Origin: Candidatus Heimdallarchaeota archaeon B3_Heim
GTDB lineage: Archaea; Asgardarchaeota; Heimdallarchaeia; Hodarchaeales; Hodarchaeaceae
Assembly: GCA_003144275.1 (NCBI GenBank)
Contig: NJBF01000001.1
Coordinates: 30,001 to 62,000, forward strand
Length of the DNA stretch: 32,000 nucleotides
Direction: 5' to 3'
Shown here: positions 1 to 4,963 of the stretch, piece by piece
Position numbering within the stretch: position 1 is the first letter of the stretch
Layout: each line of letters begins with the position of its first letter
Made by a program: the position numbers and the translations under genes
Notes under the pieces: generated by a model
The model's database searches: none
What the model was told of the DNA's origin: nothing
What the model saw: the letters and a program-made list of their open reading frames with translations, nothing else

Positions 1-827
1 ACAATAATTGGATAATCATTTAGGATCTCAAAAGCTCTTTTTATTAAATCTGCTTCATCTTTAAATCGAACAATATCAATTGATTGAGAATCATTATCAA
101 TTTCTTGACCTTTGTCTACCTCTTCTCTCTCCAAAACGAGCGCAAAGGCACCGTTCAAATTATCAGAGAAACAGATGCAGGTGATCCTATGCCTTGGATC
201 AGACGCTTGTGGAATCTGGTTTTCGGCATATTCGGTTTCGATATCACAAGATAAAATTGGGATATTGGGTATTTCTTGTGTGAAGTCGAAAACAAAATTA
301 TTCAAGAGTCCTTCATATTTGTCTAGGTGAGTCATTACAGTTGTTGGAAGCGTTAGATCAGAATTTTGAGTATCAGGAATGAAAAATTTCTTTTTTTCTG
401 CATTCCATCTGTATTTCCTACCTGGAACTAGTTGTTGGTCATAGAGCCAGTTACGATGATATTTTATTCTTGATTCCCAAGTTTCTCCTAATATCTCTCT
501 TACTTTCGGAACTTCACTGGGAGTAGGCGTGAATATTTGTGTAAACGTAGAATCTACATTGTGCAGTAAATCACGTTTTTCAATAGTAGCAAGTCGCTTA
601 ATGGTTCGTGAAGATATATTCCTTGCCTTAATATCCTGAATTGATTCCCTACTTAAACAATACGGTTCATGGTCAAATGGATCTGTAATATACACTATCT
701 TACCTTTCTTAATATCAAGAAACTTTATTCCTGCTCCGTTGCTCTTTGCATCATAGACTGTGCTTAATAACAAATAATCTTTATTCGCTTCCAGACCAAA
801 ATTATTTCCAGGTTCGATTTTACTCAT
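1..827 (-). CDS. polB1: Family B DNA polymerase, PolB1 type (N-terminal part; runs off the left edge)
   Basis: Not in ORF track because it has no stop in the window. Manual translation from ATG at 827 (AGGAG RBS at 836-840): MSKIEPGNNFGLEANKDYLLLSTVYDAKSNGAGIKFLD...DPFDHEPY...WESRIKYHRNWLYDQQLVPG...ILSCDIETEY...DEADLIKRAFEILNDYPIIV. Resembles the crenarchaeal PolB1 N-terminus and has the ExoI DIE motif. Confidence 0.9.
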   Translation of the reverse strand, partial: MSKIEPGNNFGLEANKDYLLLSTVYDAKSNGAGIKFLDIKKGKIVYITDPFDHEPYCLSRESIQDIKARNISSRTIKRLATIEKRDLLHNVDSTFTQIFTPTPSEVPKVREILGETWESRIKYHRNWLYDQQLVPGRKYRWNAEKKKFFIPDTQNSDLTLPTTVMTHLDKYEGLLNNFVFDFTQEIPNIPILSCDIETEYAENQIPQASDPRHRITCICFSDNLNGAFALVLEREEVDKGQEIDNDSQSIDIVRFKDEADLIKRAFEILNDYPII

Positions 828-1051: not shown

Positions 1052-1396
1052 TTGTCTCAAGGGGAATTAAATGCTAAAAAAATTGAAACTTTGACCAAAG
1101 TAGCTAGACTTCTAGGTGATCAGATTCAGGCTCAGAGTAGAGCAATAAATAAGATTCAAAATGAAATTGATTGGATAAAAGAATCTCTTAAAAGAATCAT
1201 TAATGAAGAATTACCTGTAAAAGCTGAAGTGTTCCAAACAGAAGATGAAATCACCCCTGAAACCCTACAAGCTCAGGAACCTAGCGTAATTTCTTTTTCA
1301 GAAGAAGAAGGAGATAAGACTGCATCAAAAACTAAAAAATTACCTTCTGAAAAAGAAGAACTTAGACAGGCATTAAAGATCATTGATAATCTTTAA
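1052..1396 (+). CDS. Hypothetical protein: N-terminal coiled coil, acidic linker, C-terminal amphipathic helix
   Basis: 114-aa ORF with TTG start, divergent from polB1; heptad pattern in LGDQIQAQSRAINKIQNEIDWIKESLKRII; ends EKEELRQALKIIDNL. Confidence 0.7.
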   Translation: MSQGELNAKKIETLTKVARLLGDQIQAQSRAINKIQNEIDWIKESLKRIINEELPVKAEVFQTEDEITPETLQAQEPSVISFSEEEGDKTASKTKKLPSEKEELRQALKIIDNL

Positions 1397-1437: not shown

Positions 1438-3111
1438 CTAGCGTAGAATATAGCGTACAAGTTGCTTAATATCTAAGGGAATCCCTTCTTTATTCCCTAA
1501 TATGGTATTAGTGTAAGATCCGATTAGATCGGACCATTCCCATCTATCCAATTGGTATAGTTCTTCTTCTGGGGATTCTATCACTTTAATGATCCGTCTA
1601 TCAACATAATCATTCAATCGTCTTTGCAAATCCAATCTCTTTTCTGCAGGAATCCCTAGGATTTGGCTAATCTTTTCCTTTGATAGTGGTTGGTTGGTTC
1701 CCAGAAGAAAGAGGATCCAATTATCAGGAGACGCTAACAACGCTTTTACCACAGGACGGAGATCTATATCCATCCCAACTGAAACACCACCTGCTTTCAT
1801 CGTGATTTCTTTGGTAACTTTGTAGCTTAGCTCTTTACCCCCATCACCTTGCTCTTTTAAATTCACAAGGCGTTCTTTTAATAGATTAACTTCCTCACGA
1901 AGATTTGCAATGTCAGATGTTATTACCATACTGTCAGAGCTTTCTTCTAAAATTTCAGGTGAAACTGTTCCCCCTTCTCTCAATAGATTCTTTAATTCTT
2001 CATTTTCCTGCCTTGTATCGATTAATATTCTTTCAAATTCTAATAATTTCTCAGATAAGTCTTCAGCGAGTCGTTCATCAATTGCCCTAGACCAAGAAAG
2101 TTTTTCGTGAGTACTTTGTGTTGTCCCTACAAGCTCTACTTCCAAATCCTCCTTGATTGCTTCTAATTCCTTTATACGCGCTTCTTGGCTCAATATTTTG
2201 TCTTTCAGCCTGTTTACTATCGATGCAGTATTTAAAATGACCTTGTTATCATCCACATTTGGAATTCGATAAACGGGTACTACACTTCCCCTATCCCAAA
2301 TTGATGCGGTTTCATACCTAACCCCCAACTTCTCAATCAACTTAGCAATTTCACGAGTTTCATCATTATATCTGAACATGAATAAATTTTCCTCGTCACC
2401 CTCAAACCTGTATAATCGAGAGAACTTCAGCCATATTGTGACAAAATCCAAAATATCCTGTTCATCTTTACATTTGGAGACAGAAAGGATTATTTGGGGA
2501 AAGCTGGCTTGGAATTCTCCAGTAAACGCTTTAACAACCGCAGAGCAAAGCTGTACAGGAATTTTAACATAAAAACCTCTTTGATTCTGTGCAAGTTCGC
2601 CATCAGGACATAAGTTCACATCAAAAACAGAATCAAATGTTTCAATAAAACTCTCAATTTTTCCTCTTTGATCAGTTTGGTAGGTACCAGTCTGAAATAC
2701 ATTCTTGGATAGTGTAAATAAGCCGAGAAGCTTAGCTAAAGAATTGCTCTTAGTTTTTACTGGAAGTTTTATTGGAAGCTGGCTCTTTTTATTCCCTATA
2801 CTAGTGACTGTGAAGGAGGTCATAAAAAGTTCTCGTTCATTTTCAACTAATATGCGAAGTGTTGACAGAGGGATGGTCATTTTTGGATTTGAACGATATC
2901 GTGACCATTGTGTTCGACTTACAACTGGACCCAACGCTTTTTGCATTCTACTATTTTGGAATACGAATCGACGTCCAGCTAATGAAAGATTTACTCGGGC
3001 CTCGTCTGGAAAGTTCTTTAATGACAACCATTCCTCGATTTCATGATCCATATCAAGTCTTGATCGTCTCTTAAAGACTTCTTCATGTAATTCTAATTTT
3101 TCGGACTCCAA
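1438..3111 (-). CDS. HTH + degenerate LAGLIDADG-like domain + coiled coil + C-terminal winged helix protein
   Basis: 557-aa ORF. VSRTQWSRYR..IPLSTLRIL (HTH-like); SLAKLLGLFTLSK and ILDFVTIWLKFS at the positions of the two LAGLIDADG helices; REIAKLIEKLGV; heptads about aa 297-420; LSKEKISQILGI...LNDYVDRRIIKV (winged helix). The CDS is secure, the domain call is by eye. Confidence 0.65.
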   Translation of the reverse strand: MESEKLELHEEVFKRRSRLDMDHEIEEWLSLKNFPDEARVNLSLAGRRFVFQNSRMQKALGPVVSRTQWSRYRSNPKMTIPLSTLRILVENERELFMTSFTVTSIGNKKSQLPIKLPVKTKSNSLAKLLGLFTLSKNVFQTGTYQTDQRGKIESFIETFDSVFDVNLCPDGELAQNQRGFYVKIPVQLCSAVVKAFTGEFQASFPQIILSVSKCKDEQDILDFVTIWLKFSRLYRFEGDEENLFMFRYNDETREIAKLIEKLGVRYETASIWDRGSVVPVYRIPNVDDNKVILNTASIVNRLKDKILSQEARIKELEAIKEDLEVELVGTTQSTHEKLSWSRAIDERLAEDLSEKLLEFERILIDTRQENEELKNLLREGGTVSPEILEESSDSMVITSDIANLREEVNLLKERLVNLKEQGDGGKELSYKVTKEITMKAGGVSVGMDIDLRPVVKALLASPDNWILFLLGTNQPLSKEKISQILGIPAEKRLDLQRRLNDYVDRRIIKVIESPEEELYQLDRWEWSDLIGSYTNTILGNKEGIPLDIKQLVRYILR

Positions 3112-3297
3112 ATTTTGACCTCACCCTGAAGGTGATCACGGTACTATTATGATCTTCTAATCTTATTTATTAAGCTAACAAATTCTTACTTGAATGATAA
3201 ATGTTTCTTTTCTGATGTGTTTATAATAACTAACTAAGACTGCACCAGTGGCACAGTCATAATTTTTATGGCTGAAGAAATTCATTTGAGGTAGTTT

Positions 3298-4074
3298 ATG
3301 ATGATTAGTCTTTACTTGGCATTATTAGATCCCATTTTTGACCTATTCCTGCTCATTTGGACATCATTAAATGATATCCTCATAGATCTTGTTGAGACTT
3401 TTGGAGTTTGGGGGCTTATATTCGCCATGGTTTTTCAATCCATTGTTGCTCCAATTATATCTGAAGCAGTATTGACTGCAGCAGGATTTGGGTTTTATAA
3501 TGCCTATGGGAACGAAGGTTTATTTTTAGCTTTTATTGGAGGGTTTATTGGTTCTCTCCTTGGAGCAGTAATCGCATTTTATATTGCACGGGGAGTACAA
3601 TCATTATTGAGAAAGAAGATAGTTGATGTTTACGGAACTAAAAAAGAGGACTCAGATTCTGAACTTAATCAAAGGAATCCACGTTTAACACGATTAGCCA
3701 ATTTCCTTGCTCGGTTTATTGATGAAGATTCCGAATATTTTTTAGATTTAATTGAAAATCATGGTTTTCTGTTCGTATTAATTGGACGCCTAGCTCCATT
3801 TATCCCCTTTGATGCTGTTTCTTACGGGGCTGGTTTTACTCGGATAAGTTTCTGGAATTATTTTATCCCAACAATTATTGGAACGATTCCTAGGGTCTTA
3901 TTTTATATTTATTTGGGTGCAGAGTTAGTTTCATGGGCTGAAGAAGATTTAAATATTTTCTTTCTAATCCTCTTAGCCTTTTCCCTAATAATATTCAGTT
4001 TATATATGATAAGTATGCGTTTCCTAAAAAATAGGATCGGAAGAAAACAGGATATCGATAAATCTCGTAACTAA
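3298..4074 (+). CDS. VTT domain (TVP38/TMEM64, DedA-like) membrane protein
   Basis: Hydrophobic 258 aa with QSIVAPIISE, GSLLGAVIAFYIAR, LIGRLAPFIPFDAVSYGAG and GTIPR motifs. Confidence 0.9.
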   Translation: MMISLYLALLDPIFDLFLLIWTSLNDILIDLVETFGVWGLIFAMVFQSIVAPIISEAVLTAAGFGFYNAYGNEGLFLAFIGGFIGSLLGAVIAFYIARGVQSLLRKKIVDVYGTKKEDSDSELNQRNPRLTRLANFLARFIDEDSEYFLDLIENHGFLFVLIGRLAPFIPFDAVSYGAGFTRISFWNYFIPTIIGTIPRVLFYIYLGAELVSWAEEDLNIFFLILLAFSLIIFSLYMISMRFLKNRIGRKQDIDKSRN

Positions 4075-4636: not shown

Positions 4637-4963
4637 TTAACTTCGCTTATATCTTTCCTCTCTTTGTCTCTTCTTCCTGTCTAGATATTTTTTCGACTTC
4701 TTACGCTTTATTTTCTCATGGGTGACTATTTCATCATTTATCTGAACACGTTCGTAAGCCGCTTTACTTGCAGATATAACAATCCATGGACTTTGAGTTG
4801 AGCCAATCGCTTCGACTACCTCTCCAAGGGATTTTGATTTCCCTTCTATATCAACAAATGCTTTGGATCCTATTTTAGGTAAATTTATTCCTTTCAATTG
4901 AACAAGTACTTTTCCTTGTGTCTTAACAGTGCATTTACCGATTCGCATGGATGAGGGTGTCAT
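4637..4963 (-). CDS. gar1: H/ACA RNP component Gar1/Naf1 family
   Basis: PKIGSKAFVD...LGEVVEAIGSTQSPWIVI pattern with basic tail; upstream of rps8e. Confidence 0.8.
   Translation of the reverse strand: MTPSSMRIGKCTVKTQGKVLVQLKGINLPKIGSKAFVDIEGKSKSLGEVVEAIGSTQSPWIVISASKAAYERVQINDEIVTHEKIKRKKSKKYLDRKKRQREERYKRS

Follow-up and report, generated by a model that had tools for sequence, protein, structure and literature searches.

The window analysed here is a stretch of 32,000 nucleotides from the Asgard archaeon Candidatus Heimdallarchaeota archaeon B3_Heim, order Hodarchaeales (assembly GCA_003144275.1, contig NJBF01000001.1, positions 30,001 to 62,000 of the forward strand). Coordinates given without a locus label refer to positions within it. 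Its reverse strand carries, at 1438–3111, an open reading frame (ORF) of 557 codons. The product, P0001, is predicted to combine a LAGLIDADG fold of the homing endonuclease type with a coiled coil and a C-terminal winged helix. The best overall explanation, to which we assign a probability of about 0.62, is a domesticated and catalytically dead LAGLIDADG module that acts together with the coiled coil and winged helix as a dimeric, non-cleaving DNA-binding factor. A preliminary description of the stretch, made from the sequence alone, had proposed a domestication of this kind. The gene comprises the following features.

1438–3111, reverse strand: whole gene, encoding the 557-residue protein P0001 plus stop codon, with a TTG start at 3111–3109
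3119–3126, reverse strand: Shine-Dalgarno-like GGGTGAGG, 8 nucleotides 5' of the TTG start, read from the sequence
2758–3054, reverse strand: N-terminal helical accessory domain, residues 20–118, with five helices and short strands (predicted local distance difference test, pLDDT, 71–94 per block of the model)
2473–2757, reverse strand: LAGLIDADG-fold lobe 1, residues 119–213, from the model of residues 20–297 and fold searches
2686–2739, reverse strand: degenerate motif helix 1, residues 125–142 (LAKLL...TG), ending in T141-G142
2221–2472, reverse strand: LAGLIDADG-fold lobe 2, residues 214–297, from the same model and searches
2416–2463, reverse strand: degenerate motif helix 2, residues 217–232, ending in F230-S231-R232, with neither acid nor glycine
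1852–2220, reverse strand: coiled-coil region, residues 298–420 (helices 298–334, 339–379 and 398–420), from the whole-protein model
1762–1851, reverse strand: variable low-confidence linker, residues 421–450 (pLDDT 29–41; alignment gappy)
1441–1761, reverse strand: ArsR/MarR-like winged helix-turn-helix, residues 451–557, with a predicted dimer interface, from Foldseek, profile and dimer model

The ORF is confirmed as a real gene, since a word-indexed search of 5.8 billion proteins recovered 63 homologues and the ratio of nonsynonymous to synonymous substitution rates (dN/dS) against a 91%-identical orthologue is 0.027, an approximate value given that the synonymous rate (dS) is near saturation. 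Every homologue is labelled 'hypothetical', and those with a named source come from Hodarchaeales or Heimdall-type Asgard archaea. An exhaustive phmmer search of 1.84 billion cluster representatives returned only 20 clusters, the longest member of which has 631 residues; no fused forms occur among them. Orthologue starts coincide with that of P0001, each behind a GGAG box at the same distance, and the guanine-plus-cytosine content of the gene equals that of the surrounding DNA. The preliminary description had recognised no named family for this architecture, and searches with P0001, whole or cut into domains, likewise yielded no significant match in Pfam, NCBIfam, PADLOC, PHROGs or PDB sequences. 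Contigs from RNA libraries (two metatranscriptome runs of one study and one doubtful run) are short and cover 2400–3076 only; they were not counted as evidence of transcription because DNA carry-over is possible.

The full-length AlphaFold2 model (pLDDT 72) resolves into a helical N-terminal domain (residues about 25–118), a compact alpha/beta region (119–297), three long helices, a disordered linker, and a winged helix (451–557). The alpha/beta region consists of two structural repeats of the same topology (119–213 and 214–297). Residues 20–297 were refolded with a 24-sequence alignment reaching down to 31% identity, giving a pLDDT of 89.1 and a predicted template modelling score (pTM) of 0.87. 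The first helices of the two lobes, LAKLLGLFTLSK (residues 125–141) and FVTIWLKFS (residues 217–230), are spaced about 92 residues apart, which bears out the two-repeat pattern with homing endonuclease spacing originally read from the sequence.

Comparison of this model with 48,161 PDB chain representatives by VIA-align placed LAGLIDADG proteins alone in the top 13 rows, with Z scores from 12.4 to 5.6 over model residues of about 100–278, ahead of the first other fold at 5.3. Nine LAGLIDADG entries reach Z scores of 8.3–12.4. They include the TliVMA intein endonuclease 7qsu (12.4; 177 residues aligned, root-mean-square deviation (rmsd) 3.5), Streptomyces WhiA 8dy9_I (10.2), PI-PfuI (10.1), PI-PkoII (9.7), I-DmoI (9.5), Thermotoga WhiA 3hyi (9.0), I-Tsp061I (8.8), and PI-SceI (8.4). 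Foldseek against the PDB arrived at the same LAGLIDADG assignment. Foldseek matches of the full model to MukF/kleisin and TFIIIC (probability 0.3–0.5, rmsd above 30) were dismissed. The predicted structure makes us confident that residues 119–297 form a two-lobed LAGLIDADG fold, as had been suggested for residues of about 110–295. At the sequence level, neither P0001 nor its domain matched Pfam LAGLIDADG_1, _2, _3 or LAGLIDADG_WhiA at E values up to 10, and no LAGLIDADG Pfam model matched any of the 24 family members at E values up to 0.1; the true intein endonucleases of the same genome do match these models.

In LAGLIDADG enzymes, each motif helix closes with an acidic residue followed by glycine. 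Across the family, G142 is invariant at the end of the first helix, and the position before it holds T, S or N in 23 of the 24 relatives, with P0071 alone having D there. The second helix ends in F/Y/H-S-R across all 24, whose identity goes down to 31%. Neither helix end has a conserved acidic residue, and the six true intein endonuclease domains of the same genome keep D/E-G and DG at the catalytic places. Read on the model, the family alignment shows both catalytic positions to be lost throughout, with the nuclease presumably inactivated. The earlier reading, in which the motif helices lack a catalytic acid or DG turn, extends in this way to the relatives, and D141 of P0071 is the single acidic residue among them at that position.

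Continued cleavage through a non-canonical active site, for which the domesticated and active HO endonuclease would be a precedent, is very improbable. Residues D147, E217, D250 and E251 are acidic in 83–92% of the family alignment, and P0071 carries D141. However, those four residues all lie away from the C-terminal ends of the motif helices, the required site of metal ligands, and motif 2 is without acid and glycine in 24 of 24 sequences. Inheritance as a single-copy, syntenic gene across the order, with no target-plus-element pattern, also argues against a functioning homing nuclease.

Predicted-structure libraries extended the likeness well beyond the LAGLIDADG core, since nearly the whole 278-residue model aligns there, N-terminal domain included. 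Clusters of the AlphaFold DB matched with template modelling (TM) scores by query of 0.55–0.66 over query residues of about 5–275; they comprise 'DOD-type homing endonuclease' proteins and intein-bearing helicases, IF-2, RFC, MCM, PolD and gyrase. The Swiss-Prot structures matched at 0.61–0.62 are archaeal intein hosts, among them MJ0832, the PolD large subunit, A-ATPase subunit B, IF-2 and reverse gyrase. In the ESM Atlas, a Nanobdellota LAGLIDADG_3 cluster reached 0.73 with 266 of 278 residues aligned, and V-ATPase inteins reached 0.68–0.69. WhiA entries cover model residues 100–277 only, with TM scores of 0.34–0.47. These structural comparisons identify the predicted module (residues 20–297) as an archaeal intein-type or free-standing 'DOD'-type LAGLIDADG endonuclease with its accessory domain, and they place its nearest structural relatives among archaeal intein-type enzymes, not with WhiA.

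The N-terminal domain contains the conserved basic residues R39, R47, R71, R73, R86, K109 and K115. Taken by itself, it gave only a weak VIA-align match to an Xre-type helix-turn-helix (HTH) protein (2ef8_B, Z 3.4). It does not look like a later addition, since this domain and the LAGLIDADG core overlay intein-resident endonucleases as one unit; most likely, judging from the models, it arrived with the endonuclease as its accessory domain. The HTH-like segment noticed ahead of the repeats is therefore retained as a helical, HTH-like domain in the model, but not as an added part, since it belongs to the endonuclease module. A separate lead from feature neighbours, to LAGLIDADG_3 proteins with HTH_5 or HTH_26 in DPANN archaea, scored 0.76–0.80, below the reliable level, and counts as no more than a lead.

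Among known systems, the best structural matches are the intein-resident endonucleases (7qsu, PI-PfuI 1dq3, PI-PkoII 2cw7/2cw8) and the free-standing DOD endonucleases of DPANN archaea, which cover both lobes and the accessory domain (Z 12.4; TM by query 0.55–0.73, with 256–266 residues in the Atlas rows). Unlike the intein-resident enzymes, P0001 lacks Hint and splicing domains, is not embedded in a host protein, has lost the acid-glycine pairs, is not mobile, and carries the additional coiled coil and winged helix. The archaeal, intron-encoded, monomeric double-motif enzymes I-DmoI and I-Tsp061I share the same core, with about 90–100 residues between motif helices, but each of their lobes has a complete four-stranded sheet, and additional domains are absent. 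Both are active, and the catalytic residues of I-DmoI are D21 and E117.

WhiA (DUF199; 3hyi, 8dy9) likewise joins a two-lobed LAGLIDADG region to a C-terminal HTH-type domain, and its Z scores of 10.2 and 9.0 extend over about 150–165 residues. It consists of a degenerate LAGLIDADG scaffold and a three-helix HTH on a short linker, and this C-terminal HTH performs sequence recognition. Both whiA and the P0001 gene are chromosomal, non-mobile housekeeping genes. Nonetheless, the resemblance is limited to the core, with the N-terminal domain outside the match, and the Pfam domains WhiA_N, LAGLIDADG_WhiA and HTH_WhiA all fail to match P0001. P0001 further differs in its 120-residue coiled coil, its ArsR/MarR-type winged helix, its predicted dimer and its restriction to one archaeal order. 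About 150 residues of coiled coil and linker separate scaffold and winged helix, compared with the short linker of WhiA. The module scores TM 0.61–0.73 against archaeal intein-type endonucleases versus 0.34–0.47 against WhiA, and the gene is confined to one archaeal order, in agreement with the independence from WhiA that had been proposed. The starting point of the domestication appears to have been an intein-type endonuclease complete with accessory domain.

The roughly 120-residue coiled coil and the winged helix that had been read after the repeats are both recovered in the models. Residues 298–420 form long helices and match coiled-coil families weakly. The winged helix matches 3cuo, SmtB and MarR-family chains in Foldseek (probability 1.0, TM by target 0.55–0.59), and a profile of the C-terminal half matches the MarR regulator 3nrv (E 2.8e-4). 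Pfam gave no match above the gathering score for residues 445–557 of P0001; among the 24 members, HTH_20 was weakly matched in three (best E 0.0035) and HTH_Crp_2 in one.

Two copies of residues 290–557 submitted to complex prediction scored 0.56, against 0.00 for the best of three controls; the mark used for this score is reached by 20 of 30 proteins solved as one-chain pairs, compared with 1 of 23 whose solved structure is a single chain. The dimer runs share at least 33% of contacts, with a partner pLDDT of at least 58. Contacts in the dimer model are heptad-spaced over residues 298–330 and also involve the first and last winged-helix helices (451–474 and 521–557), a pattern that corresponds to the ArsR/MarR dimerisation mode in this prediction. 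The 107 C-terminal residues of P0001 have the fold of ArsR/SmtB and MarR repressors; those families pair through their first and last helices, the ones used in the predicted dimer. The C-terminal residues differ from these repressors in falling below Pfam thresholds, in showing no recognised metal- or ligand-site motif, and in forming an appendage of a 557-residue multidomain protein.

Distribution and synteny separate the gene from mobile endonucleases. Its own genome has a single copy. When 400 genomes of the phylum were searched with a family hidden Markov model, the gene turned up in 20 of the 21 that belong to its genus and in 2 of 2 from the sister family, which makes 22 of 23 for the order. 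The only genome of the order without it is 74% complete. Outside the order, the same survey returned 14 weak matches only, all falling within the coiled-coil and C-terminal region. Constraint on the protein is strongest in its LAGLIDADG part (dN 0.029). Hint and Intein_splicing families have no match in P0001 or the 24 members; the protein begins about 20 residues ahead of the module, and the coiled coil follows directly after it. No transposase, integrase or intein lies near the gene.

These results show a vertically inherited, single-copy and strongly constrained gene that is limited to a single Asgard order, which the NCBI names of the homologues identify as Hodarchaeales. The gene is therefore considered domesticated and not mobile: it is single-copy and syntenic, 22 of the order's 23 genomes have it, and purifying selection on it is strong. 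The preliminary description had noted the lack of intein splicing motifs and of a mobile context, and both observations hold. The patchy spread expected of mobile endonucleases is not seen across the order, the gene sits in a collinear block within its genus, and the proposed archaeal domestication of a LAGLIDADG scaffold gains support from the dead motifs, single copy, synteny and low dN/dS.

The domain architecture, together with conserved basic residues in the N-terminal domain, linker and strands (R39, R47, R71, R73, K109, R178, K183, R232, R247), points to a dimeric, non-cleaving, DNA-binding role, so that we infer the function of a DNA-binding regulator or organiser from the predicted structures. 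In the mechanism that we propose, P0001 would be a homodimer joined through a parallel coiled coil and through winged helices paired in the ArsR manner. The winged-helix pair would read a dyad DNA site, and the two endonuclease-derived modules would either bind DNA, leaving it uncut, or act as docking sites for partner proteins. The whole protein could then serve as a sequence-specific transcription regulator or DNA-bridging factor, similar to WhiA in its working and separate in origin. It is also conceivable, if rather unlikely, that the module has retained its specificity for a long and nearly unique stretch of DNA, which might be the homing site of its ancestor, in which case the dimer would be a non-cutting anchor that bridges or marks loci, for example in replication or chromosome organisation. 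Such a site-specific anchor would mark chromosomes in a way so far undescribed for archaea.

Several observations weigh against the DNA-binding interpretation and its structural basis. A comparison by hhalign of the family's N-terminal alignment with the six LAGLIDADG domains of the same genome's inteins gave a probability of 0.9%, and a PDB profile search with that alignment returned nothing relevant; with no sequence-level link to LAGLIDADG proteins, homology is argued from predicted structure only. The catalytic positions were placed by helix register and by aligned ranges with D21-G22 of I-DmoI, without residue-level superposition. DSSP assigned a single strand per lobe where canonical enzymes have a beta1-beta2 hairpin; the DNA-binding saddle is accordingly reduced and might fail to bind DNA. 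Because ArsR/MarR dimers are known from solved structures, the dimer score may stem from resemblance to them. The only element common to twelve upstream regions is the GGAG box before the start codon, with no operator-like motif among them, and the idea of an autoregulatory operator was dropped on this ground. No binding site, regulon or partner was identified, and the neighbouring genes, mostly for translation and RNA processing, give no pointer to the role.

Part of this evidence could also indicate that the LAGLIDADG likeness is convergent or a modelling artefact and that the region has an unrelated alpha/beta fold. Sequence and profile similarity are absent, the alignments are 22–24 sequences deep and drawn from one order, and one strand is missing per lobe. 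We regard such an error as highly unlikely, given that three independent search methods in four libraries returned LAGLIDADG proteins only over the whole domain, well apart from other folds, and that model confidence is high.

The reduced sheets bear in addition on a division of labour in which the winged helix alone binds DNA and the dead LAGLIDADG module acts as a scaffold on which proteins dock, for instance RNA polymerase, a basal factor, or the product of the neighbouring orf114. The beta sheets of the lobes are down to three strands, an interface with another protein would equally account for the strong constraint on the domain, orf114 remains close to the gene throughout the order, and WhiA itself recognises sequence by its C-terminal HTH. 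However, the polar and basic residues Q145, N176, R178, Y181, K183, R247 and Y281 are invariant and lie on the strands, as in DNA-contacting saddles, and the accessory N-terminal domain, a DNA-binding aid of such endonucleases, has been retained and is highly conserved. A pure scaffold role is accordingly the less probable arrangement, and a non-cleaving DNA-binding module remains preferred.

Bacterial WhiA is a documented example of a selfish homing endonuclease that became a DNA-binding protein of its host; yeast HO is another, and there the nuclease has been retained. HO descends from an intein, still has nuclease activity and Hint remnants, and bears zinc fingers. P0001 differs from it in having lost the active site and in lacking a Hint remnant. 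A passage in PMC7282813 describes HO as a free-standing chromosomal gene, akin to homing genetic elements, that adopted a host function. Full-text literature searches returned no account of an archaeal case or of such a protein in Asgard archaea. Hodarchaeales are of interest as relatives of eukaryotes, and the domestication is fixed across the whole order. The family lacks database annotation and defines three unrecognised domain families. It offers a concrete, biochemically testable candidate for a lineage-specific regulator or chromosome organiser.

Around the gene, the window contains the following neighbours.

3–827, reverse strand: N-terminus of a B-family DNA polymerase, polB (whole gene 852 residues, intein-free; context only)
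1052–1396, forward strand: orf114, encoding a small coiled-coil protein, a convergent neighbour in conserved position
3298–4074, forward strand: VTT/DedA-family membrane protein, divergent from the dead-LAGLIDADG gene
4637–4963, reverse strand: orf108, between S8e and a geranylgeranyl-reductase-like gene

The block polB-orf114-X-VTT-S8e-orf108-GGR-Fer4-KaiC-CofE, where X is the dead-LAGLIDADG gene, is collinear in eleven genomes of the genus, with polB relocated in one. In the genome studied here, NMD3-family and RsmB/F-type methyltransferase genes lie beyond polB (L043, G000:C57:25000-31000). In relatives at 31–37% identity the flanks differ, yet polB, S8e or NMD3 is close by in three of five. 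The preliminary description had mentioned the location near polB1. A B-family polB is indeed nearby, but it belongs to a conserved housekeeping block and is not an operon partner. An operon of the two genes was rejected, since the conserved orf114 lies between them on the opposite strand and the whole block is collinear in the genus. An escape of the module from a polB intein was likewise set aside, as nothing beyond adjacency speaks for it and the neighbouring 852-residue polB has no intein or LAGLIDADG match.

This setting is the principal argument for an RNA-binding, maturase-like or ribonucleoprotein-associated factor, in which the dead LAGLIDADG module would bind structured RNA in the manner of nuclease-deficient intron maturases. 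LAGLIDADG maturases are established, and translation and RNA genes recur beside the family: S8e, NMD3 and RsmB here, NMD3 directly 3' of the gene in the distant relative L038, a tRNA-splicing endonuclease, eIF2-gamma and S6e in L039, and S19 and Cbf5 in L040. Such a role is nevertheless improbable. The gene does not lie within an intron, a dimeric ArsR/MarR-type winged helix and an endonuclease accessory domain typically bind double-stranded DNA, and the neighbourhood is a general housekeeping block that includes polB.

Throughout the genus, orf114 is convergent to the dead-LAGLIDADG gene. Its product carries a coiled-coil helix at the N-terminus and an invariant motif at the C-terminus, K..L..AL..I (roughly EKEELxxALKxIDxL); the linker in between varies and is acidic or PQ-rich. 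In relatives at 31–34% identity, orf114 is found beside the dead-LAGLIDADG gene, beside polB, or one gene off (L042:6035-6322, reverse strand; L039:1388-1810, forward; L038:4360-4899, forward). The protein may be a partner of P0001, or a short docking peptide for another machine.

Other members of the block vary in their conservation. orf108 has no Pfam match and is kept in position and sequence (45–82% identity) in 11 of 11 genus genomes checked. The VTT/DedA-family gene is well conserved in 2 of 11 (67–75% identity over 232 residues); in the other genus genomes only a stretch of 75–190 residues matches, at times on the other strand, so the slot is variable. In one distant relative, a 63-residue ribbon-helix-helix (RHH_1) gene lies on the same strand 180 nucleotides downstream of the homologue (L040:3119-3310, forward strand).

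Elsewhere in the same genome, canonical LAGLIDADG_3 domains with intact D/E-G occur in very long ORFs (1558, 1344, 668 and 566 residues), which are probably inteins, and in one ORF of 286 residues (C8:74108-76198, C91:31246-31521, C61:40664-41122, C74:14266-14715, C87:101789-102292). Active-type endonucleases thus coexist with the domesticated gene.

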